A stretch of 64,000 nucleotides of DNA from NCBI GenBank assembly GCA_015489175.1, contig WGAI01000012.1:36307-100306 (forward strand), read 5' to 3'. Positions 12,800 through 56,092 of the stretch are shown here, one piece after another. The translations under genes were made by a program, and so were the position numbers. The notes beneath the pieces were generated by a model. It was not told the DNA's origin and did not search any database. It worked only from the letters and a program-made list of their open reading frames with translations. This stretch comes from a candidate division WOR-3 bacterium. GTDB taxonomy: Bacteria; Hydrothermota; Hydrothermia; B15-G9. Every line of letters starts with the position of its first letter. Positions within the stretch are counted from its first letter, which is position 1.

Positions 12800-15736
12800 T
12801 CACCGATTAATCTTAACTATTCGCCTCACGATAGTGCGTTTACCATCGATCGAGGCCCTCACCAGATAAACGCCTGAAGCTACTCTGTGGCCGCTCATGT
12901 CAGTCCCGTCCCACCTGAACTTGTGGATGCCTGCCTTAAATCTGCCCTGTCCAAGTTCGTTTATCAGCCTGCCCGATACATCAAAGATCGAAATCTCGAG
13001 ATCCGATGGCCTGTCGAGGGATAGCATTATCTCGGTGGCGTCAGCAGATGGATTGGGCGCAACCATAATGTCCGGTTTGCCCATCGACGGGTGTGTCTCC
13101 TCGATGCCCTGCGCCATACCGCTGACATGCAGGTAGTAGATGTTGCCGTCGGTTGGGACATTAGGGCCGCCGCTCGTGATCATCCAAACATCGCCCGGTG
13201 CCGGCGGCACGGTCATGTTGTTTCGCAAGTTAAACCAGTAATACTGGCCTGAAAGGTAGAAGCAGCGATGGACTGACGGATCCAGATAGCGGCTCGGTGC
13301 GTTCGGAAGCCCGATGAACCAGTTGTCGCCCGGCGTTGAGTCGAACGGCACCTCCACACCGTTAGTCATATCAACGACGCGGAGCGTGGTCTGTCCTGTC
13401 GCCGAGTCCTGAACCCAGTAAATCATGTAGTCAGAGCCTCTGAAGGCCCAGCGCAGATTGGCGTTCGGCGGCGCCGTGCCCATGCTGTCCATCCCCGCAA
13501 TCTGGAGTGTCCCATCAAATCCGCTGACATTGCGGACGATCCGAAATCCTGTGATCCTGAACAGGGCACCGTCGATCATTGATGTGAACTCGAAGGTTAT
13601 GCCGCCGATAACGGGCGAGTAGTCCTTTATCATGTGGCCGTCCAGTCCCACTGAGAGATGACCCTCAGCGAGCAGATCCCTCGTTGCGCTGTCTATGATG
13701 GTGTAAGTGTATGTCGGCTCGGGTTGAATTCGGTTAAACCTTATCTCGTATGTCCTTGCCGTGAGCGATTCTGGATAGTAAACGAGCGGGTTAATCGATA
13801 CGGTGTTACATCCGCCATGAGCGTGGACAAGTCCGTCTATCACCTGATGATCGTTCAGCACCGTAATCATTGAATAGGACGAATCTACGGCGAATGTGTC
13901 CGCATCGTGCGCCTCAACGAACAGGCGATACGATGTGTTGTGCACCAGAGCTGAGTTGAAAGTGTAACTGCCTGTGTTTTCCAGCCCTCGTGCGAGGTAA
14001 AATTTGTCGCCTGTCATCGCATGGACGAGGTAGATGTCGATCGAAAGCGGATCGCCGTCTGCATCGGCCGCCCACCATCTGACCTCAGCGTCTCCTGAGA
14101 GGGTGCCCCGTTGCGGGCTCAGCAACAGCAGGTCGGGCACGCCGTTGCCCGGATTGTTGACGGTAAAGACGGTGTCAGACACATCCTCGCCAACCGCAAG
14201 TGTATCATAGACTGAAACCCTTATGCGATAACGGGTTCCATCGGGGACATCGTTCGTATGCCAGATGTATGAACCTGCATCTGGTATGCCCTGAGCTATC
14301 GGAACCCATGTCTCGCCGTTGTCCCGCGAGTAGAAGAGATCGACCAACATGTCGGCTCCGAACGCACTGGAATCCTGCCATGTGATCTCCACATCGCCGT
14401 AAACCGTCTCTCCGCCATTCGGATAATCGACATGTGCCCAGTTAGTCACGAAGTTGATATCGTAGAGCGTTTGGGCGAGGTCGGAATTTGCCTGAAGGTC
14501 GGCCAGATCCTCGCCCATGATGACTGCTATCACTATCTTTGCGGTGTCGCCGGGCGCAAGGTCGAACGGGCCTGTGAACTGGAGGAACCTGATGTCGGTG
14601 GGGGTAGATATGCTGTCGAACGGATGATATTCTCCTGTCGTGTAGTTGTAGCCTGCCGCAAGCTGATAGGCCTGATCGTCGTTATCTGGATCCGGCTCGC
14701 CCGGCCCGCCGACGCCGGGGTTGTGTATGATCTTGAAAGCAGTTAGGCCAAGCTGGTTGCCGGTCGTATCGGTCGGACTTTCAAGGAAGTCGAAGCCCAC
14801 ATATCCGGGCGGATTTGACCAGCCCGGCACGCTCCCGTCCGAATCGAAGGCATAACCCAGATTGCGGTCAGTGTCGAAGCCCGCGAGGTCGTCCTGATAA
14901 TCGCCTGCCCCGACATCCGCATCGCAAACCACGCCCATGTAAATGTGTTCGAGCGTGTCGTCCGTCGCATTCACCACATAGTAGTTCAGGAACAGGAAGT
15001 CCTGATAAAGGGTGTAGTTCCAGCAATATCCGACCTGTATCACCTTTATGCCGAGCGGATGGTCAGCCCTTGACGAGTCCATGTCGTTGCCTATCGCATA
15101 GCTATCCTCGGTGGAGATCACCACAGGGGCACCTGTTGCGTCGCGCACCGGCCATAGCGCAGTGTCAGACGGCTCGTTTGAGAACAACACACGCTCGGTG
15201 GTGTCCGTGTAGCCGGGTTCGTTCGGGAGGTCGCCGGGAACAAGCTCAGTGCCTCCGTTCGATGGGTTGTAGCCCATGTCAAGTGCAGCGTAGTAGGCTA
15301 TCATCTCCTCACCTGCGTTGTGCGTCACGGCCGTCGTGCTGGCAAAGCCGCGGATACACGAAAGCAATGTGTCGCCTGAAATCCCGTGATAATGCACAAA
15401 CTCATTGCCAATCTTCAGGATACCTGTTGAATCGAGGCCGTCGATCGATGTCACACGGATTGCGTTCGCATCCGCTGTAATGTCCTCGGCAAGGGAGGTG
15501 CTAACTCCCTTCGGTTTCAATGCGCCGACCCATATCCCGGCGCCGAAGATGTAGGTCTGTCCTGTGCCTTTCGGCCATTCTGCTGCGTTCTGGTAGCCAA
15601 AACGGCCGAAGTTCGTTATGGCGAGCCTGAGCAGCCCATCATCATGCCATCTCGTTGACCAGATGGCGAACAGGTTGCTCGCACTCAAAAACATCATGAA
15701 AACTACAACACCTGAAATTTTGATCTTGCGAATCAT
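12800..15736 (-). CDS. large secreted protein with T9SS type-A C-terminal sorting domain (cargo of unknown function)
   Basis: Signal peptide (MIRKIKISGVVVFMMFLSASNLFA). 978 aa. The C-terminus ...SGVYLVRASIDGKRTIVRRIVKINR matches the conserved T9SS CTD (SGVYxxR...K-hydrophobic end). Asp/Gly-rich Ca-binding-like stretches. Confidence 0.7.
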   Translation of the reverse strand: MIRKIKISGVVVFMMFLSASNLFAIWSTRWHDDGLLRLAITNFGRFGYQNAAEWPKGTGQTYIFGAGIWVGALKPKGVSTSLAEDITADANAIRVTSIDGLDSTGILKIGNEFVHYHGISGDTLLSCIRGFASTTAVTHNAGEEMIAYYAALDMGYNPSNGGTELVPGDLPNEPGYTDTTERVLFSNEPSDTALWPVRDATGAPVVISTEDSYAIGNDMDSSRADHPLGIKVIQVGYCWNYTLYQDFLFLNYYVVNATDDTLEHIYMGVVCDADVGAGDYQDDLAGFDTDRNLGYAFDSDGSVPGWSNPPGYVGFDFLESPTDTTGNQLGLTAFKIIHNPGVGGPGEPDPDNDDQAYQLAAGYNYTTGEYHPFDSISTPTDIRFLQFTGPFDLAPGDTAKIVIAVIMGEDLADLQANSDLAQTLYDINFVTNWAHVDYPNGGETVYGDVEITWQDSSAFGADMLVDLFYSRDNGETWVPIAQGIPDAGSYIWHTNDVPDGTRYRIRVSVYDTLAVGEDVSDTVFTVNNPGNGVPDLLLLSPQRGTLSGDAEVRWWAADADGDPLSIDIYLVHAMTGDKFYLARGLENTGSYTFNSALVHNTSYRLFVEAHDADTFAVDSSYSMITVLNDHQVIDGLVHAHGGCNTVSINPLVYYPESLTARTYEIRFNRIQPEPTYTYTIIDSATRDLLAEGHLSVGLDGHMIKDYSPVIGGITFEFTSMIDGALFRITGFRIVRNVSGFDGTLQIAGMDSMGTAPPNANLRWAFRGSDYMIYWVQDSATGQTTLRVVDMTNGVEVPFDSTPGDNWFIGLPNAPSRYLDPSVHRCFYLSGQYYWFNLRNNMTVPPAPGDVWMITSGGPNVPTDGNIYYLHVSGMAQGIEETHPSMGKPDIMVAPNPSADATEIMLSLDRPSDLEISIFDVSGRLINELGQGRFKAGIHKFRWDGTDMSGHRVASGVYLVRASIDGKRTIVRRIVKINR

Positions 15737-15740
15737 GGTC

Positions 15741-17948
15741 TCACCTCACAATCATGAATTTTTTGGTGACCTGCGAATTGTCCGATGCGTTGACGAGCCT
15801 CGCGAAATAAACCCCTGAAGAGAAACCATTTACCGGCAATGTTGTGACATTGTTACCTCTGTTAAGCCGCAATGTGTTGATTACCCTACCCGTGATGTCC
15901 AGAATGTTGAGCCGGTAACCTTCGTCTGGAGCAAATGCCGTCAACTTGACGGAGCTGTTTGAAAGTGCTACATCAAGTCGGGGCAGTTTTTGGGCTGCGA
16001 TCGGCTCGTCCTCCTCGACAGACGGCAGCAGCCTGTAAAGCACGATATGGGCCCATGTGTATTTCGTGGTGGTCATCCCATCCTCGTTCGAGATCAGCAG
16101 TTTCCACCGTCCTTCTGGCATGGTCAGGTAGGCCTGTTCGGTTATCGGGATGTCCTCCGCCATCGATGCCGCCGTGAACCTGTGCCCCATCTGGTATTCA
16201 TCAAAATTAGAGCTATCCATGACATAGTAGTCGAGCCTGATCTGATCCTCATCGATGAGGTTGCCGTATGTGTGATAAAACCCTGTATCCCCTGCATTTC
16301 TGCGGCATCTGACATAGCCGTGTTCGACGCCAATGCCCCCATCAGTCGTTATCTCAACCATGTAAGCTGTCTCATCGCTGCTTGTTGTGTCAGCCCACGG
16401 CGATGGGGTGAAGTTCGGAATGGTCACCGTGACATAGTATTGAGCGCCGGTCTGTGAGTTCTCGATTATCTGCACGATCGTGTTGGGATCCTCAGGGTAG
16501 TCTCCGATCGGCGAATTGACATGGATGTAGAAGTTGCGCAGCTCGCCTATCTCGAAGTTCGCAATTCCGTTCTGATCGGTGAACAGCCATGAGCTCACAC
16601 TGTAACCGCCATACCAGCCCTCGGTGTAGAGCAACACGCGTGCGCCCGGCACAGGCTTGTTTCGCCAATCGACAACCTGCACATGGAGCGAACAGACATC
16701 CGAGTAGATATGCGTCATCGTGGTGGTGTAGCCGTCAGACCTCCAGTCGAGGACAGATGAGATGTGTTTTCCGCCGCCGTAATCGTCGTCCATGGCTATT
16801 CCCGGCGCATTGATGCTGGTTGGCCCGCCATACCAGCCTACCTGATACGGATACCAGTTGCCGTCGAAGTAGAAAGCGGTGAACACATGGTCTTCTGCCA
16901 GCGTGAAGTGCGAGGTTATCGGAATAAGTGCGGCTCTCGCGCCCGCCACAAGGGCATCCTGAAGCTCGCCGCAGTTACCGTTGTGCTCATGGATTATCAC
17001 ATTTGGCTGAATTGGGCGGTCACCCGTCGCAGTCGTTGGGATATTGTAGCCGACCCAGTTGCCGACGATGTCGAGCGCATAACTCGTTGAGTCAAACGGG
17101 CGAAATCTCGGCAAATTCACAGGCGTGTCGGAAACGACCCAGAGCGTTTTCACGCCGCGCATAACATCCGCAAGCCTCGGATAGCCCGAATCCGCATGGT
17201 AAAACAGGTAGTCGCGCCAAAACCTGTTGTAAACATACCCGTCCATCCTCGGCATCTCGTCCGACAGTTCAGGATGGACTATGTAGTAGTAATAGATCCA
17301 GTAAGGGATGGTCGTGTAAGCGGTGTCGCCGTTGGCGTCGATGTAGCGATACCGCGCCGTTGTGAAGTAGTCCTCGCCTGTCGTGTCCTCGACCAGCTCA
17401 ACATAATCGAGCGAATCCGCATTCCGATAGATGTATTCAGCGTTGACCTCGACAAGTTGAGGGTCAAACACGGAATCCATCAGTATCTCAGGCGATAGAG
17501 CCGCAACTACGAAGGCTATCTCGTCACGATACCGGTCGTCCGTTGGGTTGATTATCATCTGAGCGTAAATATCTTGAAACTCAGGTGTTAGCCTGTGCAT
17601 GTTGTCGGCGAGCAGTGGTCTGAGCCAGTCAGGGGCTATATCTATGGCCTGAAGTGCATTGGTTGTTAGGCCGGTATCGGGATAATCCGTCAGCGTTAGG
17701 CCTGTGGAATCGATGTCGAAGATGATGCGTTCGCCGGGCCACATCAGCAAGAACAGGTCTTTTCGATCCACAACCTGCCATTGCGTGTCTGGCGGCATCG
17801 TCTGAACGGACGGCAGGTGCCCAAAACCCTCAGCACCTTCAAACGGTTGGACTATGTGCCTGATAATTCTGGGGTTGTCCAGATGCGGAGGGGACATCGT
17901 CGTGATGCCCTGTCCAACGACAAGGGTTACAATTACCAGCCAGTTCAT
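15741..17948 (-). CDS. transglutaminase-like cysteine-protease-fold protein with T9SS C-terminal domain
   Basis: Signal peptide. The transglutaminase core signature GNCGELQDALVAGARAALIPI...DHVFTAFYFDGNWYPY matches the GxC...H...D pattern of PF01841. C-terminal ...SGVYFARLVNASDNSQVTKKFMIVR is a T9SS CTD. Confidence 0.65.
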   Translation of the reverse strand: MNWLVIVTLVVGQGITTMSPPHLDNPRIIRHIVQPFEGAEGFGHLPSVQTMPPDTQWQVVDRKDLFLLMWPGERIIFDIDSTGLTLTDYPDTGLTTNALQAIDIAPDWLRPLLADNMHRLTPEFQDIYAQMIINPTDDRYRDEIAFVVAALSPEILMDSVFDPQLVEVNAEYIYRNADSLDYVELVEDTTGEDYFTTARYRYIDANGDTAYTTIPYWIYYYYIVHPELSDEMPRMDGYVYNRFWRDYLFYHADSGYPRLADVMRGVKTLWVVSDTPVNLPRFRPFDSTSYALDIVGNWVGYNIPTTATGDRPIQPNVIIHEHNGNCGELQDALVAGARAALIPITSHFTLAEDHVFTAFYFDGNWYPYQVGWYGGPTSINAPGIAMDDDYGGGKHISSVLDWRSDGYTTTMTHIYSDVCSLHVQVVDWRNKPVPGARVLLYTEGWYGGYSVSSWLFTDQNGIANFEIGELRNFYIHVNSPIGDYPEDPNTIVQIIENSQTGAQYYVTVTIPNFTPSPWADTTSSDETAYMVEITTDGGIGVEHGYVRCRRNAGDTGFYHTYGNLIDEDQIRLDYYVMDSSNFDEYQMGHRFTAASMAEDIPITEQAYLTMPEGRWKLLISNEDGMTTTKYTWAHIVLYRLLPSVEEDEPIAAQKLPRLDVALSNSSVKLTAFAPDEGYRLNILDITGRVINTLRLNRGNNVTTLPVNGFSSGVYFARLVNASDNSQVTKKFMIVR

Positions 17949-22338: not shown

Positions 22339-22442
22339 ATTTTTAGTTTCTCATGCATAAAACTCATGCCGCATTGTGCTTTAATTGGTAAAATGCTCTC
22401 CTAATCGATAAAATATCCTGCCAGATAAAGGAGGAGGTAGTT

Positions 22443-25400
22443 ATGACAGCGTTGATTTATGCATTGATCGCTTTAAACATGCGGCTTTCAATTGATTTAG
22501 GTGAAAATTTTTCGATTTTCCGTTCCGACAGCGGCGAAATCATCCAGATGGACGGCGCTGTTCCGTTGCTGGAGTATGGCGAGCCGGAACTCCCGATAAA
22601 GCCGATCTTCGTCTCGATACCTCAGGGCTACTCCATAGGTAGCGTTGAGGTTTTAAATGCGGACAGCATTAAGGTAGATGTGGATTGGGATGACCTTTTG
22701 CGCAACATGGCAGAGGAATTTTCCAATGATCACGGCAAAAATTCGCTTTCCAGCCGTTATAGCTCAAACATCGTGGAGCTTCTAAATACATGGACATCGT
22801 TTGGTTTCAGGATTGGGGTGTTAAATGTTTATCCAGTGAGGCATAACGAGAGCACAGGGGAGACCTTTCTGGTTAATCACATAGATGTTGAGCTAAACCT
22901 CGTTCCGACGAGTTACGGGACCCCCACCGTCATGAGGCGCAGCGATTTTGAGTATGTTAAGCGCGTTCTGGGCACGCTTGTCGTCAACCCTTATGACCTT
23001 GATGTGAACTCGCCGTCCCTGAGGCTTGTCGATAAGGTCGATGTAACCTCGAACATCTACCCCTATGTGATAATCACCAGGGACGAGCTTGTGCCCTATT
23101 TCGATGAGCTTACGGCCATTTTCGCCATGGAAGGGTATCCGAGCATCGTCAGATCGATTTCATGGATAGAATCGCATTACACCGGAAGTGACAGACTTGA
23201 GAGAGTCCGTAACTTTATACGCGACATGTATCTACATCATGGCACGGTGTGGGTTCTACTTGGCGCCGACAGCCCGTTCCTCCCCTCGAGGGTGGTCAAC
23301 ATTCCCATAGGCACGGGCTACTACGACGATGTCCCGACAGACCTTTATTTTTCTTGCCTTGACGGCACATGGGACAGAAACGGCAACGGCCATTATGCTG
23401 AGCTTGAAGATAGTGTTGATCTCATGCCAGATGTGTTCGTCGGGCGCGTTACTTTTCAGGATTCAGCTGAGATCGCCAATGTCGTGCGCAAATACCTTGC
23501 CTATGTTTCGCCATCCGACACGAGCTATTCGGCAACCTCGATGTTCGTTGGTGCTGACCTGTTTTCGAGCGGAGATGGTGCTTCACTCTGCGAAGAATTG
23601 GCCTCCTATGTTCCTTCGAACTTCAACATCATCCGCATGTATGAGACGAATTCACACGATAACTCGTTGTCCGATTTCATGGATGCGATCAACAACGGCG
23701 TCGGACTGGTCACAATGGAGGTTCACGGGTGGTACACATTTATCAATCTCAACTCCACGCCTCGCATTTCGTTCACTTACAACAACGCCGACACACTTGC
23801 GAACATAGACAGGCCAGCGGTTTTCAACATCGTATCCTGTGAGACGGGTGGATTTGACCGCGAATGCATCGTCGAGCACATGATGCGTGCGCCGGGCGGC
23901 GCAATCGCGGTCCTATCGAGCACGAGAAACAACTATCCGTATGTGGTTCAGCCATACAACATTATGTTCTTCCAGAGACTTTACCAGAACCATATAAGGG
24001 AAATTGCGGCACTCGACCTGTTGTCCAGAAGCGTTTTTTTGGCTTACTCAGGCGCTTACAACCACTCGAGATATGCGCTGTTTTCATACAACCTCATGGG
24101 AATGCCACAGCTAAGGCTCTGGAGCAGCGTGCCGTCGAGGACGCATTTCGTGAATGTGCCTCCGTTCGTCTCAACAGGGCTTCAGGACATAACTGTGACA
24201 CTTGTAGATAACAACGGTAATCCGTTGCCCGGAAAGGTGGTATCGGTTTACAAAACGGGCGAAACCTACGACATCGACACCACCGACGCCAGCGGAAGGG
24301 CAAGCTTCACGATAAGCCCATTGACCCCCGGCCCGCTCTACATCGGCAGCTTCGATCCGACCATCACAGCCGTCGTCGAGACCGTGGTCGTCACATCAGG
24401 CACAGGTGTCCCGTTTCTCGCATCTTACGATGTCACATATCCGTCGGTTGTCTCCGCAGGTGACAGCGTTGAACTCAGCCTTTCCATCGGCAATGACGGT
24501 GTTGCCAGCTTCTCCAACATCGTGGTGCAGGCTGAAGATATCGATACGGCCATCGACCTGCTGGTAGATTCCCTGTTGTTGGATTCCTTGCCGAGGATGG
24601 ACACGGTTGATGTAGAGGAACCGCTTGTTCTGCGTGTGCACGATGGGGTGACTGATGGCTATGTGGCCTCAATTCCAGTTATCTTCAAGCGAGGCAGCGA
24701 GATCATGAGCGTTGACACGATAGGCCTTGAGGTAGCAGCCCCGCAAATCACATTGATACGCAAGAGGATCGAGCATCATGTTGGCAGCCAAATTTACAAA
24801 CTGTGGCCCGTTATCAGCAACTACGGCAATGGGATAGCCAGACATGTTTCGGTGCGGCTTCTGGGGGCTGACAACATCGCACTTATCGATTCCAGCGCCA
24901 AAGTGGGCGACATCGAACCGTTCTCCGAAGCCATGCCCGATAACCCGCTGAGATTTATGCTATACGGCCCGACGCCCGATCTGACGCTCACGATCAGGGT
25001 GCAGGCGGACAACATCATGGGTTATCAGGATTTCCATGTTACTTTCTCGGAGATTGCGAGGCCTGAAAGCGTCGATGTTTCCACAAACATCTCGGGCATA
25101 AAACTCAGATGGCACCCTGTGGACGACGGAGGGCTGCGCGGCTACATCGTCTATCGTGCGCTCAACAGCCACAAGTTCAGCCCGATAACGAGCTATCCGC
25201 TTGATCACCCGGAATTTGTCGATGTTAATGTCGAATACGGGCACACTTACCGCTACTTTGTGGTGGCAGTTGATACATCTGGAACCGAGAGTCCCACATC
25301 TGACACCGTTGAAGGGTTTTATTATCAAGAGCTTAACGGATGGCCGGTTGTTGTCATGGGTCCCTCTGCGCCGCTGATCGCTGATATCGACCCGTATCCG

Positions 25401-26858
25401 GGCAAGGAGATCATACTCGGCTCTGAGGACGGCAAAGTTTATGCCTTCCATGACGATGGTACGCCTGTCGATGGCTGGCCTGTTGACATCGGCGGAACGG
25501 TCATAACAAGCCCTGCCGCCGGAGACCTCGATGGCGATGGCTATGATGAGGTGGTCGTGATACCAGGCAATCGCCATTCGTATCTCTACGCCCTCAACGG
25601 AGATGGCACACCGGTTGATGGCTGGCCGAAGGACATCTGCGGCCGATCATGGGCTGCTCCGACGCTTTACGACCTTGATGGAGACGGCCATCTCGAGGTT
25701 ATTGTGCACTCCACATGCGGCAAACTTTATGCTTTCAGGTCTAACGGCTCACCATACCTATCTGACACGAGCGGTGTCTTTTACGACCTACCTGAGCCCA
25801 GCGGTGGGTTTGCCGAGATCGCAGTCGCCGACATCAACAACGACGGCACACCGGAAGTCGTTACAGGTGACAGGTATGATGGAATTATCGCCATAACTTA
25901 CTACGGACAGGCGTTGCCTGGCTTTCCTGTGAACGGGACGCAGACGAGGACCGAGATTGCGGTCGCCGATTTCGTGCCGTCCGAGCCCGGACTTGAAATT
26001 GCGACCTATGTCGGCCGAAATACGATTTACATGGTAACAGCCGACGGGCGGATAGTGAGCGGCTGGCCTGTGGAGATCGGGGACACAAACGCCAATTTCT
26101 ACAACTTTTCAATGCATGTCATAGCCGCTGACATAGACAACGACAGCGTGCCCGAAGTGGTTTCAAACGCCAGCGATGGCATTCTGGCTTACAACGGCGA
26201 TGGAACGCCGGTCCATGGTTTCCCGTATCGGTTCAGGGAATACATGTATACCGAGCAATCGCCTGTGGCAGCGGATGTTGATGGCGATGGTTCCACCGAA
26301 GGATTTATGATCAGCTACTACAAGGTTTACGGCGTGGCGTCCGATGGCACTGATTACGGAAGCTTCCCGTTCGATGTCGTGTCAGGAAGCCATAAGACGC
26401 CTGCGATAGATGACATCGATGGTGACGGCGCCGCCGAGATGGTCATTCCGGCGTCGGACGGATTTGTCCATGTGATCAAGCTGCCCGGCTTATGGCATTT
26501 CAACGGATGGCCGCAATACCAGCACGACAAGCAGAAGACTGGCACATACGGGTTTGAGCCGAGACGGATAAACTCGTGCAATGAAGCTTTTCCTTCTCCA
26601 AAAACCGAGCTCAAAGGTGTGACCGCGACCGTCAACCGTGCTGAGGTGACTTTCATGGCATCCGTCAGGAGCGGAGCGAGGGTCTCGGTTCAAATATTCA
26701 GCGTGGATGGACGGCTTATCGATGAGATAAACAGCGTGGCCCGCAATAAGTGCTTCAGCCTGAAATGGAATGCCTCAGGTGTCCACAGCGGCGTCTATTT
26801 CTACAGGATGTCATCTGATGGTGTGGTGAAAACCGGCAAGTTCGTCGTAGTTAAGTGA
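22443..26858 (+). CDS. gingipain-like peptidase C25 fused to FN3, FG-GAP/VCBS beta-propeller repeats and T9SS C-terminal domain
   Basis: 1471 aa. C25 catalytic dyad context MEVHGWYTF...(about 35 aa)...NIVSCETGGFDRE...APGGAIAV. At least 6 FG-GAP-like Ca-binding repeats (DLDGDGYDEVVV, DLDGDGHLEVIV, DINNDGTPEVV, DIDNDSVPEVV, DVDGDGSTEG, DIDGDGAAEMVI). C-terminal ...SGVYFYRMSSDGVVKTGKFVVVK is a T9SS CTD. Confidence 0.75.
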   Translation: MTALIYALIALNMRLSIDLGENFSIFRSDSGEIIQMDGAVPLLEYGEPELPIKPIFVSIPQGYSIGSVEVLNADSIKVDVDWDDLLRNMAEEFSNDHGKNSLSSRYSSNIVELLNTWTSFGFRIGVLNVYPVRHNESTGETFLVNHIDVELNLVPTSYGTPTVMRRSDFEYVKRVLGTLVVNPYDLDVNSPSLRLVDKVDVTSNIYPYVIITRDELVPYFDELTAIFAMEGYPSIVRSISWIESHYTGSDRLERVRNFIRDMYLHHGTVWVLLGADSPFLPSRVVNIPIGTGYYDDVPTDLYFSCLDGTWDRNGNGHYAELEDSVDLMPDVFVGRVTFQDSAEIANVVRKYLAYVSPSDTSYSATSMFVGADLFSSGDGASLCEELASYVPSNFNIIRMYETNSHDNSLSDFMDAINNGVGLVTMEVHGWYTFINLNSTPRISFTYNNADTLANIDRPAVFNIVSCETGGFDRECIVEHMMRAPGGAIAVLSSTRNNYPYVVQPYNIMFFQRLYQNHIREIAALDLLSRSVFLAYSGAYNHSRYALFSYNLMGMPQLRLWSSVPSRTHFVNVPPFVSTGLQDITVTLVDNNGNPLPGKVVSVYKTGETYDIDTTDASGRASFTISPLTPGPLYIGSFDPTITAVVETVVVTSGTGVPFLASYDVTYPSVVSAGDSVELSLSIGNDGVASFSNIVVQAEDIDTAIDLLVDSLLLDSLPRMDTVDVEEPLVLRVHDGVTDGYVASIPVIFKRGSEIMSVDTIGLEVAAPQITLIRKRIEHHVGSQIYKLWPVISNYGNGIARHVSVRLLGADNIALIDSSAKVGDIEPFSEAMPDNPLRFMLYGPTPDLTLTIRVQADNIMGYQDFHVTFSEIARPESVDVSTNISGIKLRWHPVDDGGLRGYIVYRALNSHKFSPITSYPLDHPEFVDVNVEYGHTYRYFVVAVDTSGTESPTSDTVEGFYYQELNGWPVVVMGPSAPLIADIDPYPGKEIILGSEDGKVYAFHDDGTPVDGWPVDIGGTVITSPAAGDLDGDGYDEVVVIPGNRHSYLYALNGDGTPVDGWPKDICGRSWAAPTLYDLDGDGHLEVIVHSTCGKLYAFRSNGSPYLSDTSGVFYDLPEPSGGFAEIAVADINNDGTPEVVTGDRYDGIIAITYYGQALPGFPVNGTQTRTEIAVADFVPSEPGLEIATYVGRNTIYMVTADGRIVSGWPVEIGDTNANFYNFSMHVIAADIDNDSVPEVVSNASDGILAYNGDGTPVHGFPYRFREYMYTEQSPVAADVDGDGSTEGFMISYYKVYGVASDGTDYGSFPFDVVSGSHKTPAIDDIDGDGAAEMVIPASDGFVHVIKLPGLWHFNGWPQYQHDKQKTGTYGFEPRRINSCNEAFPSPKTELKGVTATVNRAEVTFMASVRSGARVSVQIFSVDGRLIDEINSVARNKCFSLKWNASGVHSGVYFYRMSSDGVVKTGKFVVVK

Positions 26859-28102
26859 AACCTCGCCTTCTGCTGGTAGCGTATTACTTTCCGCCCCATA
26901 ACTTTGTCGGGGCATACAGGCCGTTGAGGCTGGCTCGCTATCTGCACCGACGCGGATGGGAGATAACAGTTTTGTCAGCTCGTGGGCCTGAGAAAAGGCG
27001 GCGTGATCCTCAACTGCTGAGCTTCCTGTCTGAGGATGTGAGGGTTTTCAGAGTGCCTTCCCCCGAAGGCGGCGAGCCAAATGCCGGCCGAACTGCCATC
27101 TTCAAGAAATTTATCCGCGAAACGCTCAACCTTTTGATGTTTCCCGACAAAAAGGTGGTCTGGGCGCTAAGAGCAGCCCGCGCATCCGTGGCCATTATCA
27201 ACAGGTTCAAACCCGATGTGGTTCTTATCACAGCGCCTCCATATTCTGCGCTCATAACCGGGCTTGTCGCAACCAGATATGGGGTGCCGTGGGTGGCTGA
27301 TTTCCGCGATGCGTGGGTCAGGGATGCGCTCGGCGCTTACAGGACGCCAATTCACAGAAAACTGGCAGTGGAAGGCGAGCGGTGGGCGGTTAGGCGAGCC
27401 GCTGCCTGCACATTTGTCAACAGACGACTCATGCATGATGTCATGGAGAGGAATCCGATGGAGGCGCATAAATTCGTTCTTGTGAGAAACGGCTTTGACC
27501 CCGAAATGCTGCCTCAAGATGTTCATCTGTCCAAAGACTTTACGATATCCTACATCGGAACGCTATACGGGCACAGGAAACCTCATATCCTGCTCAGAGG
27601 CATCGCTGAGTTCAGAAAAATGGTCCCTGATGCGGAGATAAAGCTAATCTTTGTTGGCAGAAGCGAATTTGACATCGTTGGGGCAGCTGTGGAGTTCGGC
27701 TTACCAGTTGATTGGGTGAGGCACATTGACTTTTTGGGCTATTCTGAAGCTGCACGGATCGGGATGGCGTCCACCGCTCTATGGCTCATCGTCTCGCCGA
27801 AAGAAAAAGCTGCACCTCTCACAGCGCCCGGTAAACTCTACGATTACATCGGATTCATGCGCCCAATCATCGCATCGGTTCCTGACGGGATAGTTGCCGA
27901 ATTAGTCTCGTCTCTTGACGATAGCTTTGTCGTAGATCCGAACGATGCACATGGGCTGGCAGGCGCCATAGCCGAATTGTATCGCAGGTTTCAGAGCGGT
28001 CAGATCACGGTCAACAGGGAGGCAAGGATGGAATACCACATTGCGAAATCGGCAGCGGTTCTTGATGAGGTGCTGCGCAGGACGGCGAGGTTGCGTCGAT
28101 AA
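26855..28102 (+). CDS. glycosyltransferase family 4 (GT-B fold)
   Basis: N-terminal GT4-type start (LLLVAYYFPPHNFVGAYRPLRLARYL) and a C-terminal GT-B domain. Its ATGA start/stop overlaps the C25 gene. Confidence 0.75.
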   Translation: MKPRLLLVAYYFPPHNFVGAYRPLRLARYLHRRGWEITVLSARGPEKRRRDPQLLSFLSEDVRVFRVPSPEGGEPNAGRTAIFKKFIRETLNLLMFPDKKVVWALRAARASVAIINRFKPDVVLITAPPYSALITGLVATRYGVPWVADFRDAWVRDALGAYRTPIHRKLAVEGERWAVRRAAACTFVNRRLMHDVMERNPMEAHKFVLVRNGFDPEMLPQDVHLSKDFTISYIGTLYGHRKPHILLRGIAEFRKMVPDAEIKLIFVGRSEFDIVGAAVEFGLPVDWVRHIDFLGYSEAARIGMASTALWLIVSPKEKAAPLTAPGKLYDYIGFMRPIIASVPDGIVAELVSSLDDSFVVDPNDAHGLAGAIAELYRRFQSGQITVNREARMEYHIAKSAAVLDEVLRRTARLRR

Positions 28103-31612: not shown

Positions 31613-34600
31613 TTGACTTTGATTTACGACAAAACTATAATCACCAGCATGAAAGGACTGCTTCTTAGAAGGGCAAGGGAACTTGAAGCAGCAGGTTTGC
31701 TCGATGAAGCCCTCAAGGTATATGATGAATTGATTTACATGTATCCAGCTGACCCTTCACTTTACAACTTTTATGCCGATCTCCTCCTGCGAAACAACAG
31801 AGTTCAGGATGCGATTGAAAGGTTATACAGGGCTGGTGAAATTTACGAAAAGTCAGGTTTTGACAAGTATGTGGAGGCTATTTTTAAGAAGATACTCTCC
31901 ATAAATCCCTTTGAAAGACGAGCTTTGATAAAGTTGACCCAATACTATTTGAAACACGACGAGGTGGATAAAGCGCTCGAATTCCGGAATCTTTACATAC
32001 AGTATCTTCAGGAGAATGGATTTGACATAGGGTTTGCTTCTGTGCTCAATGACATGAATTACCTCGTCCAAAACTTCAGCGATGACATGGATTTTGTCAA
32101 AAAGACAGCTGAAATAGCACTAAATTTCCCCACAGAGGCGGACACCGGCGACTTTCTTTTTTCAGTCGCAAAAATTTTCGAGACAAACGGAGAGGTCGAT
32201 TACTCGATCGAACTTTACCGTCAGATAGTCAGGAAAAATGCTCGGTGTTACAAAGCGTATTACGCTCTTGGACGGCTCACCAGCAACAGGGAATACCTTG
32301 AGAGGGCTAAAGAAGAGGCAATCAAGAGGCTGCTCAACAGCTTTGATTACAATGCTGCCCAAGTCGTTGCGAATGTGCTCCTCTCGGAAGGAAACAGAAG
32401 GGAAGCTTCCAGATTTCTATCTCTGGCCGCCAGACTTGCACTCGAGAAAGGTGACAGGAAATCCGCTCAAAAACATTTCCTCAAGGCCTATGAAACCAAT
32501 AATAACAACTTTGATGCCCTTGAAAGCTACCTTGAACTCGTTGACCAGCACGATGATGGGGCTCAGATTGCGTCGTATTACATAGCACTTGCGGCTCACC
32601 ACATCACGCTTGGCAACCTGAGAAAGGCAGAGGCTTTTCTGAGGGAAGCCGGCAACTATATCGAAAATTCGAGCGGGATCGATAAAATCATACGGAATAT
32701 CAAGGTGTTCAGAAGGGTAAAGTATGCAGGTCACGGGATTAAGGATCTGCTTGTTTCCTCCTTCATTCAGCCTGATGTTGACACGGAACTGCCGACAGGG
32801 ATCGATTTTCATTCGGAAATCTTCGAGCTCATCAACATGAAAGAAAGATTTTCGTTCGCATTGCTCAGGATTGACGGCATTTTTGAGCTTGAGGAGAAGC
32901 ATGGTTCGGATGCTGCTGATGCGTTTTTGAAAAAGGCTGAAACTTATCTTATCAAGGAGCTGGGCGGAGCGAAACTCGGACGACATGATCGAGACACTTT
33001 CATGGCACTATGGATTGGGATTGACCCCGAGACTGATAAGATAGTCGATAAAATTAAGTCCGCTCAATCTAAATTCAGTCAGGATGTGTTTCTTGAGAAT
33101 TACCGCGACTATCGGACAGGATTTTCAGCTGGTATTATGAGTTCTAAAGGCTCCGTTGAGCTTGTAGATTTCCTCAGGACATTTAAGAAAGCTCTTGATA
33201 TGCTGAAAACCGTGCGGGACAGCGTTTTTGAGGTGGAGGTTGAACGAGCTGCGATTCCAGATCTTTCCGTTTTCACTGGGAGGGAATCGATTTTGTCTGA
33301 TATGCAAAGCCGCGCCTTTGGCAGAGTTCAACTCGTGACAGGAAGCACTGGTCTTGGCAAATCTGTGCTACTCAATGAGTTCATAGACCGCATGGAGAGC
33401 GAAGATGTCTATCTAATTCCAGTCAGAGGGACGCCGACACCCAATCGCCGCGACTTTGAACCGTTGCTCTCAGGCATAGTGAAATTCATGAGCTCGCTAC
33501 CGCCTGCCGAAAAGAAAACCATCACCGCAAGAACAGGCGGAGAACTTCCCATCCCCGAAAATATGCCGTTTTCGCCCGATGACAAAAAGTTCGCTGTCTT
33601 CAAATGGATAGATAAACTGCTCGACCACATCGACCAAAATGGCAAACGCATTGTTTTTGTAGTCGATGACATGCACCACCTGGACAGTTCAAGCCTTGAT
33701 GTGATTCTCCACATCGCCAATAACCTTACGCAAAAGATCAGTTTGGTTCTGAGCATCAATCCCAACTCTGAAAACGCCACAGCGAAAAGCGCACTTGCTC
33801 AATTGGAACAAACTGATGGGTTTCTTAGGATCGAGCTTAAGCCATTTGGGACCAGCGAGATCACGGATTATCTGCTGAAAGTCTATCACGCATCTGAAAT
33901 CCCCGAGGGACTTGCTGATTTCATATCCGAAATGACGGGTGGCAACCCGTTTTCTGTTGCGGAACTTGTGCTTTTCATGGACAGAAACGGTCACATAGTC
34001 TCTTCTGACGGCAAGATTAGTTGGAATAGGCTCGAAGGTGCAGCCTTCCCATCAACGCTTGATGAACTTCTGGAAAACAAGATCGCTTCACAGGATTCCA
34101 CGCTCCTCAGAATCCTCCAGACGGCAGCTGTATTCGGTTATGCATTTGACTTTGATCTCATCAGAACCACATTCAAGGATTTCGATGGCAATGTTTTGCT
34201 CCGGCTAATGGAAAACGCAATTGCGGAAGACATTGTCAGAAGCGGCGTCAATTACGGCTACGATTACGAGTTTGTAAACGAGTTGGTCAGGGACGGGGTG
34301 ATCAACTCGATACAACCTGACAAAGCTCATGTAGTGCACAATGCGATAGCTCAATATCTTGAAAACGAGTATCTGGCTGGCCGAGGGGATGTGGTCGAGG
34401 ACATGGTGAGGCACTTTGGTAAAGCAGGTGATACCCGCAAAACCATGATTTATGCGATAATAGCGGGAGAGAGGGCGCTGTCCGACTTCCGATTTGACGA
34501 GGCAAAGAGTTATTTCAGCAAGGGCGTCGAGCTTTTCAGGCAGGACAGCGTGGAGCTTCCCGAAGGGTTTATCACAAGGCTTTTTGAGGGGTATGCGAAG

Positions 34601-36133
34601 GCGCTCGAACGGCTTGGCGAATACGAAAAGGCTGACAAGGTTTTGAAGGAAGCGCTTGAGGTTGTCCCAGACAATGCGAGGATCTACAATGCGATTGGCA
34701 ACATCAAACTTACGAGATCCGAGTTCAACGATGCGCTTGATGCGTTTTACAAAGCCCTTGAGCTTTCCAGCGAGGATATTAACAAAGCTACCACCTTGAT
34801 CAACATAGGCAAAACTTATTTCATTCAAATGGAATACGGCCATGCAATCTCATCGCTCATGAAGGCCGAGAGGATTTTGCTCGAACTCGAAAATAGAACC
34901 CTGCTGAGTGAGGTAAAGTTGTTCATAGGGGCAGTGATGCGAGCGCGGGGAGAGCTCTCAAAGGCCAGAATAAACTACAAGGAAGCACTTGAAATCGCCC
35001 GTTCAGTGGGAAATCTGCGCGGAGAGATACACGCACTCAACAATCTCGGCTCAGTCTTGAGAGCTATTGGTGATGTTGAACAAGCTGAGAGATTTTTGAG
35101 AGAAGCATTTGAGCTGGCTCAAAAGGCTGGTGATATCAGGGCACGCATCGTAGCATCGAACAACCTCGGCATGGTCAAAAAGGACAGAGGGGAGCTCAAA
35201 TCGGCAATAGAAATATTTAACTCTGTTATCCATCAATCCGAAAAACTCGGGCTCAGGGACTCTGTTACAATCGCCCACATCGAGCTCGCAGAAATCAATT
35301 TCCTACTCGGGAACCTTTCCGAGGCGGAAAAGTTTGCGCGCACTGCCATTGACATGGCGGTCGAACTCGGCAGAAACCACTATGAAGCCCTTGCTATGCG
35401 GCATCTTGCACTTATAAGGCTATACACAGGCGAATTCAAGGAAGCGCTTGACCTGATCGAGAAAGCAGAGAAAAAGCTTGGGTTCAGGTATTCTATAGAG
35501 TATCTGCCGCTGATAAAACTTTCGCGTGGAGACTATTATTACAGGTTGAAACGGTTTAGTGAGGCCATATTTGCGTATCGAGATGCCCTTAATAGGGTCG
35601 AGCTTGCAGATGTGAAGAAAGTTAAAGCTATTGCGTTGTCATCACTTGTGAACATCTACATCAACACTGATGACCTACTTGATGCCGATAAGTCCTTAAT
35701 AGAAGCTGATGTCAGCATGGGCAACTCACCAATCGCCGAAGCAAAAGTCAGGTATCTTGTTGCAAAAGCAGGCATAAATGCGATCAAAAACCTCAAGGAA
35801 GAGGCAATAGACGACATCGAAAGCGCAATTTCTGCCGTGAAAAGGGACGAGATCAAAATCTACACCCCTGAAATTCTGTTGATGAAGGCCTATGTCCTGA
35901 GCAAATTCGGCGACATTAAGGAAGCAGTTGATGTCCTACTTGACGCTTACAAAATCAGCCTGGATATGGGGATTTGGGGCGTTGCGTGGGAGATAGGATA
36001 TAGGCTTTTGCAACTGGCTCCACAGCAAGCGCCAAACATAGCGGGCGAACTCAAAGAAATGATATCTCGATTCAGGGAACAGGGCAATGAGTTTGTGCCA
36101 TCAATAAAACTACCTGACGAGGACGAAGCATGA
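31613..36133 (+). CDS. 1506-aa multidomain protein: N-terminal TPR - degenerate GGDEF-like domain - P-loop NTPase (AAA_16/STAND-like) - long C-terminal TPR array
   Basis: GGDEF-fold alignment FALLRIDGIFELEEKHGSDAADAFL...KLGRHDRDTFMAL...FSAGIMS...FKKALDMLK, with RHDRDTF replacing RYGGEEF. Walker A VTGSTGLGKSV. Walker B RIVFVVDDMHHLD. At least 10 TPR-like repeats with NNLG/NAIG cores downstream. Confidence 0.7.
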   Translation: MTLIYDKTIITSMKGLLLRRARELEAAGLLDEALKVYDELIYMYPADPSLYNFYADLLLRNNRVQDAIERLYRAGEIYEKSGFDKYVEAIFKKILSINPFERRALIKLTQYYLKHDEVDKALEFRNLYIQYLQENGFDIGFASVLNDMNYLVQNFSDDMDFVKKTAEIALNFPTEADTGDFLFSVAKIFETNGEVDYSIELYRQIVRKNARCYKAYYALGRLTSNREYLERAKEEAIKRLLNSFDYNAAQVVANVLLSEGNRREASRFLSLAARLALEKGDRKSAQKHFLKAYETNNNNFDALESYLELVDQHDDGAQIASYYIALAAHHITLGNLRKAEAFLREAGNYIENSSGIDKIIRNIKVFRRVKYAGHGIKDLLVSSFIQPDVDTELPTGIDFHSEIFELINMKERFSFALLRIDGIFELEEKHGSDAADAFLKKAETYLIKELGGAKLGRHDRDTFMALWIGIDPETDKIVDKIKSAQSKFSQDVFLENYRDYRTGFSAGIMSSKGSVELVDFLRTFKKALDMLKTVRDSVFEVEVERAAIPDLSVFTGRESILSDMQSRAFGRVQLVTGSTGLGKSVLLNEFIDRMESEDVYLIPVRGTPTPNRRDFEPLLSGIVKFMSSLPPAEKKTITARTGGELPIPENMPFSPDDKKFAVFKWIDKLLDHIDQNGKRIVFVVDDMHHLDSSSLDVILHIANNLTQKISLVLSINPNSENATAKSALAQLEQTDGFLRIELKPFGTSEITDYLLKVYHASEIPEGLADFISEMTGGNPFSVAELVLFMDRNGHIVSSDGKISWNRLEGAAFPSTLDELLENKIASQDSTLLRILQTAAVFGYAFDFDLIRTTFKDFDGNVLLRLMENAIAEDIVRSGVNYGYDYEFVNELVRDGVINSIQPDKAHVVHNAIAQYLENEYLAGRGDVVEDMVRHFGKAGDTRKTMIYAIIAGERALSDFRFDEAKSYFSKGVELFRQDSVELPEGFITRLFEGYAKALERLGEYEKADKVLKEALEVVPDNARIYNAIGNIKLTRSEFNDALDAFYKALELSSEDINKATTLINIGKTYFIQMEYGHAISSLMKAERILLELENRTLLSEVKLFIGAVMRARGELSKARINYKEALEIARSVGNLRGEIHALNNLGSVLRAIGDVEQAERFLREAFELAQKAGDIRARIVASNNLGMVKKDRGELKSAIEIFNSVIHQSEKLGLRDSVTIAHIELAEINFLLGNLSEAEKFARTAIDMAVELGRNHYEALAMRHLALIRLYTGEFKEALDLIEKAEKKLGFRYSIEYLPLIKLSRGDYYYRLKRFSEAIFAYRDALNRVELADVKKVKAIALSSLVNIYINTDDLLDADKSLIEADVSMGNSPIAEAKVRYLVAKAGINAIKNLKEEAIDDIESAISAVKRDEIKIYTPEILLMKAYVLSKFGDIKEAVDVLLDAYKISLDMGIWGVAWEIGYRLLQLAPQQAPNIAGELKEMISRFREQGNEFVPSIKLPDEDEA

Positions 36134-41444: not shown

Positions 41445-42635
41445 ATGAAACTGCTTTTGTTGATGGTTTTCGCTTTTGGTGATACGCTGCACCTGACGAT
41501 GGACAAAGCAGTTGAAATCGCTTTAAAAAACAGTCCGACATTGAATTCGAGCCGTGAGCAGTCTCGAATGGGCAGGCTGAACTTCATGGAATCAGCTCTG
41601 TCGTATGGGGTTGTGCCGACGCTAAGCTTCAACAAGATCGACACAATGCCGTCAACCCAGAACTTCACCCTTAACCTCACCATTTTCAGCATAAACGGCT
41701 TAAATTCAGTGGTGAACTCATTCGCATCTGCCCGCTCATCGTCATACGCGCTCCAGCAGAGCAGGAATTCGCTCATCCTCAATGTGAAAACGAGCTATCT
41801 CATGGCCCTGTCCGCGCAAAAGTCATACATGGCGCGCGTTAAGCAGCTCAAAAGGGCTCAGGAGAACCTCAGGTTTGTCCAGGCGCAATACGAGCTCGGC
41901 AACGCAAGCCGACTTGACCTTCTCGGCGCAAAAGTTCAAGCTGGACAGGCAAAGCTCAATGTGCTCAAGGCTGAAACCGATTACCGCAACAGCATAAGCA
42001 ACTTAGCGGTCGTGCTCGGATTTGACCCGTCGAGGCCAATTCTGTGCGATGACATTGAGATGGAGATCGATACTGCACTGCTCCCCCCCGATTCGCTTGT
42101 GAAGATTGCAATGGAAAACAGACCTGATCTGCGTTCGCTGAGGGCGTCACTTTGTGCTTCAAAGGCATCGTTCTGGCTCAAAACCTTCTCGTTCCTGCCG
42201 AGCGTGAGCTACAACTTAGAATGGGACAGGAAGGAAGGTCAGGCGTGGACGAAAACTGGCCCGAAAAGATACATCTCCCTACAGTTCAACATACTCGGCT
42301 ATCCATTCCGTGTGGCTGGAGGTCTTGGTTCAGTGAGAAAAGCGGAGTTTGAATATCGAGCCGCTTACCTTCAGGCCGCCAACGAAATAATTTCAAGGTA
42401 TAACGACTTTAAGACCGCTTACAGCAGTTACATGCTGGCAAAAGAGGTGTTTGAGCAGGCGAAAGCCGCCTATGAGCTTGCGAAAGTTCAACATCAGGCC
42501 GGCCAGATAGGCATTATCGAGCTATTCAAAGCCGAAAGCGACCTCGCTGATGCAGAATCGCAGCTCTATTCCGCACGGTATCAGCTATACATCGCAAAGG
42601 AAAAACTGGATTACTCGGTCGGCACAATTCAGTAA
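41445..42635 (+). CDS. TolC-family outer-membrane efflux protein (orphan)
   Basis: ORF 41337..42635. The start at 41445 (MKLLLLMVFAF signal peptide) is preceded by a GGGAGGA RBS. Two OEP repeats with coiled-coil character. No adjacent periplasmic adaptor or transporter. Confidence 0.75.
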   Translation: MKLLLLMVFAFGDTLHLTMDKAVEIALKNSPTLNSSREQSRMGRLNFMESALSYGVVPTLSFNKIDTMPSTQNFTLNLTIFSINGLNSVVNSFASARSSSYALQQSRNSLILNVKTSYLMALSAQKSYMARVKQLKRAQENLRFVQAQYELGNASRLDLLGAKVQAGQAKLNVLKAETDYRNSISNLAVVLGFDPSRPILCDDIEMEIDTALLPPDSLVKIAMENRPDLRSLRASLCASKASFWLKTFSFLPSVSYNLEWDRKEGQAWTKTGPKRYISLQFNILGYPFRVAGGLGSVRKAEFEYRAAYLQAANEIISRYNDFKTAYSSYMLAKEVFEQAKAAYELAKVQHQAGQIGIIELFKAESDLADAESQLYSARYQLYIAKEKLDYSVGTIQ

Positions 42636-55243: not shown

Positions 55244-56092
55244 TTGATGAAAAGAAAGCTATTGCTGATCGCTTTTGCTATTGTGTCTTTTGGGTTTGTA
55301 AGCGGTTGCGGTCTCACCAGTTCAGGTGGCAAATTCGTGGTGGCGGACACAACCCAGGTCGATGTTAAAGCAATAAAAGACATCCGCATCGATGTTGTCA
55401 ACGGGGAAATAAAGATCAAGGCTGTTCCCGATGTAAAGGGCATCGATTTCGTGCTCATCAAAGAGGCGCACGGGAGAACGCAATCCAGTGCCCGCAAAAA
55501 CCTCGACAAGTTTAAGATAACGATGAACATCGGGGATTCATCGCTCACGATCTCAGATGACACCCCGCGTGAGCTCAAAAACGGCCGAAAGGTCAAGATA
55601 TATATAACCATGCCGTCAACACTGAACTCCGCCAAATTGACCATGGTCAACGGTGAGATCTCACTTGAAGGGAGACTGGATTCCGCCACAATCAAGGGAG
55701 TTAACGGGGTTCTGAGCTTCAAAGGGCACGCTTCCAACCTGACAGTAGGCCTTGTTAACGGCACGATTCACACATCTGGTGGGTTCAACAGGTTCGCCTG
55801 CAGCGTCGTGAACGGCAACATAGATGGAAATATCGATGAGATCCTGGACGGTAGCGCCTCGTGCGTCAACGGTTCAATTCATTTCACCATCTCAGGCCTC
55901 AAAAACCTCAAGGTTGTCGCTTCAGCTTTAAAGCCGGAATACATTGATATTACGGGGTTTGATAATGTGAGTGAGAAGGACAACAAGGTCATTGCTGTAC
56001 TCGGAGACGGCATCAACATGCTCCAGCTCTCCACTGTAACCGGAAAAATACAGGTTGAGGCTGTCAGGAATGTTTACGCCTTGAGAAATTGA
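55244..56092 (+). CDS. lipoprotein with DUF4097-like (putative adhesin / LiaG-like beta-helix) repeats
   Basis: Lipobox FVSGC. Repeated VNGxI strands (VVNGEIKIK, MVNGEISLEG, GVNGVLSF, LVNGTIHTSG, VVNGNIDG, CVNGSIHFT) typical of DUF4097. 282 aa. Confidence 0.6.
   Translation: MMKRKLLLIAFAIVSFGFVSGCGLTSSGGKFVVADTTQVDVKAIKDIRIDVVNGEIKIKAVPDVKGIDFVLIKEAHGRTQSSARKNLDKFKITMNIGDSSLTISDDTPRELKNGRKVKIYITMPSTLNSAKLTMVNGEISLEGRLDSATIKGVNGVLSFKGHASNLTVGLVNGTIHTSGGFNRFACSVVNGNIDGNIDEILDGSASCVNGSIHFTISGLKNLKVVASALKPEYIDITGFDNVSEKDNKVIAVLGDGINMLQLSTVTGKIQVEAVRNVYALRN

Follow-up and report, generated by a model that had tools for sequence, protein, structure and literature searches.

What does the long reading frame at 22443–26858 (forward strand) in a stretch of candidate division WOR-3 (Hydrothermota) DNA encode, and is either its architecture or its neighbourhood out of the ordinary? 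The stretch, referred to as the window, covers 64,000 nucleotides of contig WGAI01000012.1. In an earlier reading of the letters alone (the original prediction), the gene was described as a gingipain-like C25 peptidase fused to a fibronectin type III (FN3) segment and an FG-GAP beta-propeller, exported by a secretion system of type IX (T9SS) and overlapped at its 3' end by a GT4 glycosyltransferase gene. According to our analysis, the product is very likely a cysteine endopeptidase of the gingipain type (MEROPS family C25) that is secreted in latent form. The protein belongs to a large and common subfamily of uncultured Bacteroidota relatives; the identification is sound, the architecture is ordinary, and the coupling of the protease to the GT4 gene is the only lead that goes beyond the ordinary.

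Catalytic domain and prodomain

The 1471-aa open reading frame (ORF) is real. Its start is the first start codon past an upstream stop, and the strong Shine–Dalgarno sequence GGAGGAGG at 22430–22437 backs 22443 as the true start. An identical protein exists, without a name, in public data on a 143-kb contig, and the LeuRS encoded in the window falls into a 90% cluster with a Candidatus Hydrothermota LeuRS, which settles the taxon. The Pfam model Peptidase_C25 (PF01364) matched the protein at 164 bits (cutoff of 23, E = 7.7e-48) over model positions 1–374 of 374, and with this strong full-length match the C25 assignment stands. The strings VHGW (aa 427–430) and VSCETGGFD (aa 464–472), in which the original prediction had placed the catalytic dyad, were both found, and their His428 and Cys466 aligned with His211 and Cys244, respectively, of RgpB from Porphyromonas gingivalis. 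The distance between His428 and Cys466 is 38 residues, slightly more than the spacing of about 35 aa first given.

A phmmer search of the PDB with the single sequence retrieved designed Cake propellers only and missed the gingipains, and therefore a family profile was needed. The profile, built from a 20-sequence alignment of full-architecture homologues, matched RgpB (1cvr, E = 5e-30), Kgp (4rbm, E = 6.5e-24), PorU (6za2, E = 2e-19), and both gingipain prodomains; it also reached FN3 domains, FG-GAP propellers (that of integrin among them), and immunoglobulin (Ig) domains of the FlgD type. Using a 71-sequence alignment, hhalign paired His428 with His211 and Cys466 with Cys244 (probability 99.1), in agreement with HMMER. 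His428, Gly429, and Cys466 were invariant in the 20-sequence alignment, and among the C25-plus-propeller ORFs from the fetched loci, His428 and Cys466 were each conserved in 75 of 75, Gly429 in 74, and Glu478 in 72. The AlphaFold2 model of aa 1–650 (pLDDT 91.6, pTM 0.92) was compared with known structures using Foldseek. The best PDB matches were RgpB (1cvr, E = 8e-27, TM 0.77) and Kgp (TM 0.74).

The match to PorU raises another reading, in which the protein would be a PorU-like T9SS sortase, that is, a C25-fold transpeptidase that removes the C-terminal sorting domains (CTDs) of other cargo and attaches the cargo to glycolipid. PorU shares a C25-type fold and a CTD with the window protein, and the NCBIfam models T9SS_sortase and PorU2 gave weak matches. 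However, the NCBIfam scores were 32.3 bits for NF033707 (cutoff of 420) and 20 bits for NF052324 (cutoff of 450), the gingipain catalytic domains were far better sequence matches, and PorU was absent among the structural matches. PorU was also not matched in the prodomain region, where the window protein has an inhibitory domain of the gingipain type, and the tandem C25 paralogues frequently found in the loci of relatives fit digestive enzymes. We therefore consider a sortase function extremely unlikely and retain the gingipain-type protease.

The region preceding the catalytic domain was resolved by the same methods. The profile of this region matched the prodomains of Kgp (5mun, E = 4.9e-17) and RgpB (4ief_A, E = 7.8e-9), hhalign gave probabilities of 97.6 and 93.2 against the gingipain prodomains, and Foldseek matched this part of the model to 4ief_A (E = 1e-8). 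As the model of aa 1–650 matches the prodomains of both RgpB and Kgp, the N-terminal 200 residues were assigned as a gingipain-type prodomain. PF08126 is recorded in many homologues; the window protein alone gave no match to it. On these alignments and the model, the protein is predicted to be a zymogen, like the gingipains.

Arg87 is the candidate for the residue of the prodomain that would occupy the S1 pocket. In the HMMER alignment, Arg126 of RgpB, which inserts into S1, falls in the family column of Arg87, and in hhalign, RgpB Arg126 and Kgp Lys129 lie at +1 and −1 relative to it. Arg87 is retained in the orthologues with 66% and 63% identity and is replaced by Lys, within a similar EIAK string, in the orthologue with 43% identity. 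Within the catalytic domain, the S1 residue Asp163 of RgpB stands opposite Glu385 in hhalign, and the adjoining position of Glu384 is occupied by Glu or Asp among 50 of the 75 relatives. These alignments of the Arg87 loop and of Glu384/Glu385 hint that the enzymes of the Hydrothermota clade prefer a basic residue at P1, and a specificity for Arg/Lys is plausible.

Putative binding domains, sorting signal, and proposed mechanism

Four domains were overlooked in the original prediction, namely the gingipain-type prodomain, an Ig-like domain, and two beta-sandwich domains. For the Ig-like region, the Pfam matches (Big_1 and MG4) were under threshold, and the model has beta strands. The AlphaFold model of aa 640–1471 (pLDDT 85) comprised five units: two sandwiches, an FN3-like sandwich, the propeller, and a C-terminal sandwich. 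The two sandwiches that come first were modelled at a pLDDT of about 90; no Pfam model matched the isolated middle segments, and some homologues carry PF07705 or PF26607. The FN3-like segment of the original prediction, GIKLRWHPVDDGGLRGYIVYR, was found at aa 885–905, and its FN3 nature was backed at the level of the family profile, which matched FN3 structures (3mpc, E = 1.2e-11; also PTPRF and titin). A search of 1.8 billion proteins with aa 560–1000 was dominated by this unit, as aa 872–957 matched hundreds of multi-FN3 proteins at their repeats; approximately 16 of the top 150 matches spanned the whole segment. PF00041 is present in orthologues, and Pfam fn3 gave no match at E ≤ 1 for the window protein alone, including the isolated segment.

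The O-glycosylation sequon D[ST][AILVMT], a Bacteroidota motif, was also counted in the protein. It occurs at 13 sites (aa 74–1234) against 6.6 expected from shuffles (p ~0.013), and six sites cluster in aa 674–758, in the first beta-sandwich domain. Neither the strength of this excess nor the taxon-specific nature of the motif allows it to be used as evidence of glycosylation.

The FG-GAP region forms an eight-bladed propeller in the model, with eight repeat units at aa ~978–1346. PF13517 (FG-GAP_3) matched in six stretches with 85.6 bits and PF01839 (FG-GAP) with 47 bits. The original prediction of at least six repeats corresponds to exactly six canonical DxDxDG loops (aa 1028, 1077, 1130, 1230, 1278, and 1324). 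The family consensus has eight calcium-type loops; in the window protein, the motif has disappeared from blades 1 and 5. The likeness to the integrin alpha propeller thus held for the type of repeat and not for the number of blades, as the integrin alpha propeller has seven. In Foldseek, the C-terminal model resembled the eight-bladed propellers Bap1, YxaL, BamB, YesW, and Cake8 (TM 0.87 for Cake8).

The best match of the C-terminal model was YesW (E = 6e-15), a rhamnogalacturonan lyase of polysaccharide lyase family 11 (PL11), which would make the protein bifunctional if the propeller itself were enzymatic, for example as a PL11-type lyase. Weak Pfam matches to RGL11_C and to a lambda-carrageenase propeller point in the same direction. 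However, RGL11_C, with 14.8 bits, stayed below its cutoff of 27, and the likeness to YesW is structural only. A second enzymatic activity in the propeller is thus very unlikely, and we interpret the propeller as a binding module.

NCBIfam NF052323, annotated as a T9SS-dependent M6-like inactivated metalloprotease, matched aa 1229–1457 in four stretches with 93 bits, through the C-terminal part of the family. At least three classes of protease, namely C25, S8, and M6-like, are therefore followed by the same propeller/CTD module, the S8 proteins being described below. Since the NF052323 proteins carry a similar propeller and CTD and are inactivated, and since binding-type domains make up approximately 60% of the window protein, it could be a pseudo-protease, a non-catalytic surface adhesin with a C25 domain that only binds ligands. 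However, His428, Gly429, Cys466, and Glu478 are conserved among the relatives as counted above, and the protein retains the latency prodomain, for which an inactive domain would have no use. Loss of catalysis is accordingly judged exceedingly improbable, and the active protease is preferred.

At the extreme C-terminus, the T9SS CTD of the original prediction was recovered, as TIGR04183 matched with 27.7 bits (cutoff of 23). PF18962 (cutoff of 27) scored below its cutoff in the whole protein (23.4 bits) and above it on the isolated tail (28.6 bits). The CTD was modelled as a seven-strand sandwich (aa 1389–1469), and in this region the family profile matched the CTD of PorU and the FlgD Ig domain. 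T9SS is reported as a possible feature of phyla of the FCB (Fibrobacterota–Chlorobiota–Bacteroidota) group other than Bacteroidota (PMC11285876). Two further CTD proteins are encoded nearby on the reverse strand, of 978 aa (12800–15736) and 735 aa (15741–17948), with TIGR04183 scores of 35.8 and 30.5 bits, respectively. The 735-aa protein has a weak match to the transglutaminase core, and the 978-aa protein has no recognisable domain besides the CTD.

From these assignments, a mechanism can be proposed. The precursor would cross the inner membrane via Sec, and its type-A CTD would route it through T9SS and be removed, after which the protein would either be set free or become attached to a glycolipid at the surface, as in the P. 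gingivalis paradigm. Until it is cleaved off, the prodomain would cover the active site, probably via the Arg87 loop, if it works like its homologues in RgpB and Kgp. The mature enzyme is predicted to hydrolyse peptide bonds with the Cys466/His428 dyad, which is aligned and invariant. The stretch of approximately 800 residues that separates the sorting signal from the catalytic domain may serve as a stalk (Ig-like domain, sandwiches, and FN3) and a binding head (the calcium-binding propeller), and by analogy this module may take the role of the haemagglutinin/adhesin domains of RgpA and Kgp. Most likely, this module as a whole holds the enzyme on a polymeric substrate or a surface glycan, and in physiological terms the enzyme most likely degrades extracellular protein for nutrition.

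Several observations weigh against this interpretation. The N-terminal hydrophobic segment MTALIYALIALNM has no Lys or Arg before it, that is, no basic n-region; close orthologues share this short N-terminus, whereas classic signal peptides occur in the distant homologues. For the S1 determinant, the alignments are ambiguous, as HMMER made Asp163 of RgpB an insertion without a counterpart, and the loop bearing Asp516 of Kgp is absent from the window protein. In relatives beyond the Hydrothermota clade, Ser, Pro, or Gly takes the place of the basic residue in the prodomain loop. No T9SS machinery genes were found within the 64-kb window. Finally, the solute-binding-protein neighbour described below, which bears on the nutritional role, is limited to distant homologues and does not occur at the window locus. 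The coordinates of all the features are listed in Table 1.

Table 1. Positions in the window of the peptidase gene, its predicted domains and candidate residues, and the adjoining gene
Feature	Position	Strand	Basis
C25 (gingipain-family) multidomain peptidase precursor, 1471 aa	22443..26858	+	ORF listing; Pfam and NCBIfam matches
Shine–Dalgarno sequence GGAGGAGG, 5 nt upstream of ATG	22430..22437	+	Direct reading; strong
Short hydrophobic N-terminus MTALIYALIALNM, presumed Sec signal, atypical	22443..22481	+	Comparison of N-termini
Gingipain-type N-terminal prodomain (latency domain), aa ~14–200	22482..23042	+	Profile, hhalign, Foldseek
Arg87, candidate S1-occupying residue of prodomain inhibitory loop	22701..22703	+	Inference from alignments
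C25 catalytic domain, aa 208–559	23064..24119	+	PF01364, profile, model
Catalytic His428	23724..23726	+	Aligned with RgpB His211 and Kgp His444
Catalytic Cys466	23838..23840	+	Aligned with RgpB Cys244 and Kgp Cys477
Ig-like domain (Ig superfamily, IgSF) after catalytic domain, aa ~565–650	24135..24392	+	Profile and hhalign alignment with RgpB/Kgp IgSF
Two beta-sandwich domains, aa ~657–765 and ~769–867, CARDB-like by family consensus	24411..25043	+	DSSP on model
FN3 domain, aa ~875–959	25065..25319	+	Family profile; repeated-FN3 matches; model beta-sandwich
Eight-bladed FG-GAP beta-propeller, aa ~965–1360; blades 1 and 5 degenerate	25335..26522	+	Model, HMMs
Type-A T9SS C-terminal sorting domain, aa 1389–1471	26607..26855	+	TIGR04183, PF18962, model
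GT4 glycosyltransferase, 415 aa, GTG start overlapping peptidase stop	26855..28102	+	ORF listing, Pfam

Relatives and known counterparts

The original prediction called a gingipain-like protease with a large FG-GAP propeller an unusual architecture, which was wrong as to rarity. In a species scan with one genome per species, 578 relatives were found, and the architecture was counted in the best 80 loci. The arrangement of C25 domain, sandwiches, FN3, and propeller was complete in 67 of these 80, most of which also had the CTD. Among 95 homologous protein clusters, approximately 25 were full-length with both PF01364 and FG-GAP. The relatives come from WOR-3, Eisenbacteria, Krumholzibacteriota, Stahlbacteria, Fibrobacteraceae, and one Gemmatimonas metagenome-assembled genome, and all are annotated as unnamed or 'hypothetical'. 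The relatives in the first five of these groups share the full architecture at 22–28% identity, compared with 43–94% within the Hydrothermota clade. The distant relatives differ from the window protein in that they have no adjoining GT4 gene, keep the calcium motif in all eight blades, and carry Ser, Pro, or Gly at the position of Arg87. Our literature searches found no paper describing a C25 peptidase fused to FG-GAP, and neither secretion nor peptidases come up in the paper on the cultured WOR-3 isolate.

In 10 distant C25-propeller loci (L026, L033, L037, L049, L050, L051, L054, L057, L058, and L066), a gene for an extracellular solute-binding protein of family 5 (SBP_bac_5; 227 bits in L058, for example) was found directly downstream on the same strand. 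This Pfam family includes oligopeptide-binding proteins. The recurrence of this neighbour fits a nutritional role and gives a hint that proteolysis may be coupled to the uptake of peptides.

RgpB (1cvr, 4ief) was the best match to the window protein in both sequence profile and structure, at an identity of about 17–18%. It likewise has a prodomain, the C25 His/Cys dyad, an Ig-like domain, and a type-A T9SS CTD. In contrast to RgpB, the window protein has approximately 750 extra residues from the Ig-like domain to the CTD (two beta-sandwiches, FN3, and the propeller), and a counterpart of the S1 residue Asp163 is not clearly conserved. RgpB belongs to a host-associated member of the Bacteroidota, whereas the window protein is from an environmental Hydrothermota bacterium. 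In Kgp and RgpA, too, a large binding region without catalytic function separates the catalytic/Ig-like unit from the CTD, and the prodomain is homologous. Their accessory region is made up of haemagglutinin/adhesin domains; in the window protein, beta-sandwiches, FN3, and an FG-GAP propeller take that place. Other proteins with eight-bladed propellers, including Bap1, a biofilm matrix adhesin of V. cholerae (6mlt), YxaL, BamB, and YesW, resembled the window protein in this module. None of them matched the C25 domain, so that none is known from these results as a protease fusion, and what they bind or pair with cannot be carried over to the window protein.

The adjoining glycosyltransferase gene

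The GT4 gene overlaps the 3' end of the peptidase gene by 4 nt, as in the original prediction; the overlapping sequence is GTGA rather than the ATGA that was given, with a GTG start at 26855. The GT4 has the expected GT4 N-terminal and GT1-type C-terminal domains, with Pfam scores of 62.7 (PF13579), 51.2 (PF13439), and 33.1 bits (PF13692), and no NCBIfam equivalog gave a specific match, the best scores being far under cutoff. The public gene call (P0123) is 321 aa, 94 N-terminal residues shorter. The missing 94 residues hold the family-invariant F12, P13, P14, and R22 (YYFPP motif), and thus the GTG start giving 415 aa is correct. The GT4 gene is predicted to be co-transcribed with the peptidase gene and is probably translationally coupled to it. 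Promoter and terminator scans showed nothing exceeding the shuffled expectation.

The protease–GT4 pair was found in six loci of the clade (the window, L081, L082, L083, L084, and L089). The junction is a 4-nt overlap or a 4-nt gap in the window and L081–L084, and the genes abut in L089, a 1.5-kb contig. All the other neighbours differ among the window, L082, L083, and L084, the loci with informative flanks. The peptidases of L081, L082, L084, and L083 are 94, 63, 66, and 43% identical to that of the window, and the identities of the GT4 orthologues (88, 57, 58, and 43%) run parallel to peptidase identities of 94, 63, 66, and 43%. Beyond the Hydrothermota clade, the GT4 identity is 31% or less.

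A similar coupling was found with a different class of protease. A GT4 homologue in L086 (P0129, 30% identity), among the nearest outside the clade, overlaps by 4 nt a gene for a 1407-aa protein with an S8 subtilase domain, FG-GAP repeats, and a CTD, which was missed by tblastn with the propeller and was found with local hidden Markov models from the family alignment. In both L086 (6691–12206) and L156 (992–5387), the GT4 gene lies directly upstream of the S8-FG-GAP protease gene, with a short gap in L156, and the two S8 proteins are 42% identical. In these loci, as in the window, the gene for a large propeller protease stands in tight coupling with a GT4 gene from this subfamily, and the L086 protein has a CTD. 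They differ in the serine class of the protease, the reversed order with the GT4 first, and GT4 identities of 26–30% to the window GT4.

These observations raise the possibility that the GT4 and the protease are a functional pair, in which the GT4 would build the glycan or linker for T9SS attachment or a glycan bound by the propeller. Such a pairing would explain why the two genes travel together. It is favoured by the junction, kept down to 43% peptidase identity while the flanks differ, by the identities that track each other, and by the S8-propeller coupling in L086 that recurs in L156. However, tblastn with the window GT4 found no GT4 in the 80 distant C25-propeller loci, and thus the protease–GT4 pairing is clade-specific. 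In 46 of 80 metagenomic GT4 loci (L090–L168), purD lies just downstream, and guaB (IMPDH) or an M24 aminopeptidase gene is commonly upstream; this synteny identifies the GT4 subfamily as mostly a stand-alone, housekeeping-type gene. In addition, the S8-linked GT4s are not sister to the Hydrothermota GT4s, the best NCBIfam scores lie far under cutoff, the numbers are small, and the loci of the clade may share ancestry. On this evidence, the functional pair is a tentative and rather doubtful reading, and that the GT4 acts on the protease or its anchor is possible, with the chances somewhat against it. Apart from this question, a conserved housekeeping-like position is unusual for a glycosyltransferase.

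A broader proposal, which we regard as unlikely, is that a stand-alone GT4 subfamily, widespread in Bacteroidota and allied FCB phyla, was recruited at least twice into translational coupling with giant T9SS FG-GAP-propeller proteases (C25 in Hydrothermota and S8 in another lineage). The partner would be the propeller/CTD module and not the catalytic domain, and the GT4 would make either the glycan that anchors the cargo once the CTD has been removed or a propeller-bound polymer. If true, the recruitment would represent a dedicated 'protease plus own anchor glycan' cassette outside Bacteroidota.

The remainder of the window is ordinary chromosome. Genes for an S13 DD-carboxypeptidase and LpxD lie upstream of the peptidase gene on the opposite strand, and those downstream encode GT4, RibD, and an H+-pyrophosphatase. 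No second C25 or propeller paralogue was found within the 64-kb window. Three other large reading frames were noted. The first (31613–36133, forward strand) encodes a 1506-aa protein with an AAA/NACHT-like ATPase core between many TPR repeats, a STAND-type architecture, and its 3' end is overlapped by 4 nt by an amidohydrolase gene. The second (42629–46045, reverse strand) encodes a 1138-aa protein with WD40-type propeller matches that are all sub-threshold, and the third (56089–58827, forward strand) is a 912-aa ORF with zero Pfam or NCBIfam matches.

The finding does not overturn current understanding. Porphyromonas is not alone in having the gingipain design, in which a latency prodomain is followed by the Cys/His catalytic and Ig-like domains, a large binding module, and a T9SS tail. 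The design recurs, with an eight-bladed calcium propeller as a different binding head, in many uncultured FCB lineages of sediments, soils, and hydrothermal settings. In such settings, C25-propeller enzymes probably play a major part in breaking down extracellular protein. One biochemical study of one member would annotate hundreds of proteins and reveal the ligand of the propeller, and the protease–GT4 pair provides a testable handle on the anchoring of T9SS cargo outside Bacteroidota.

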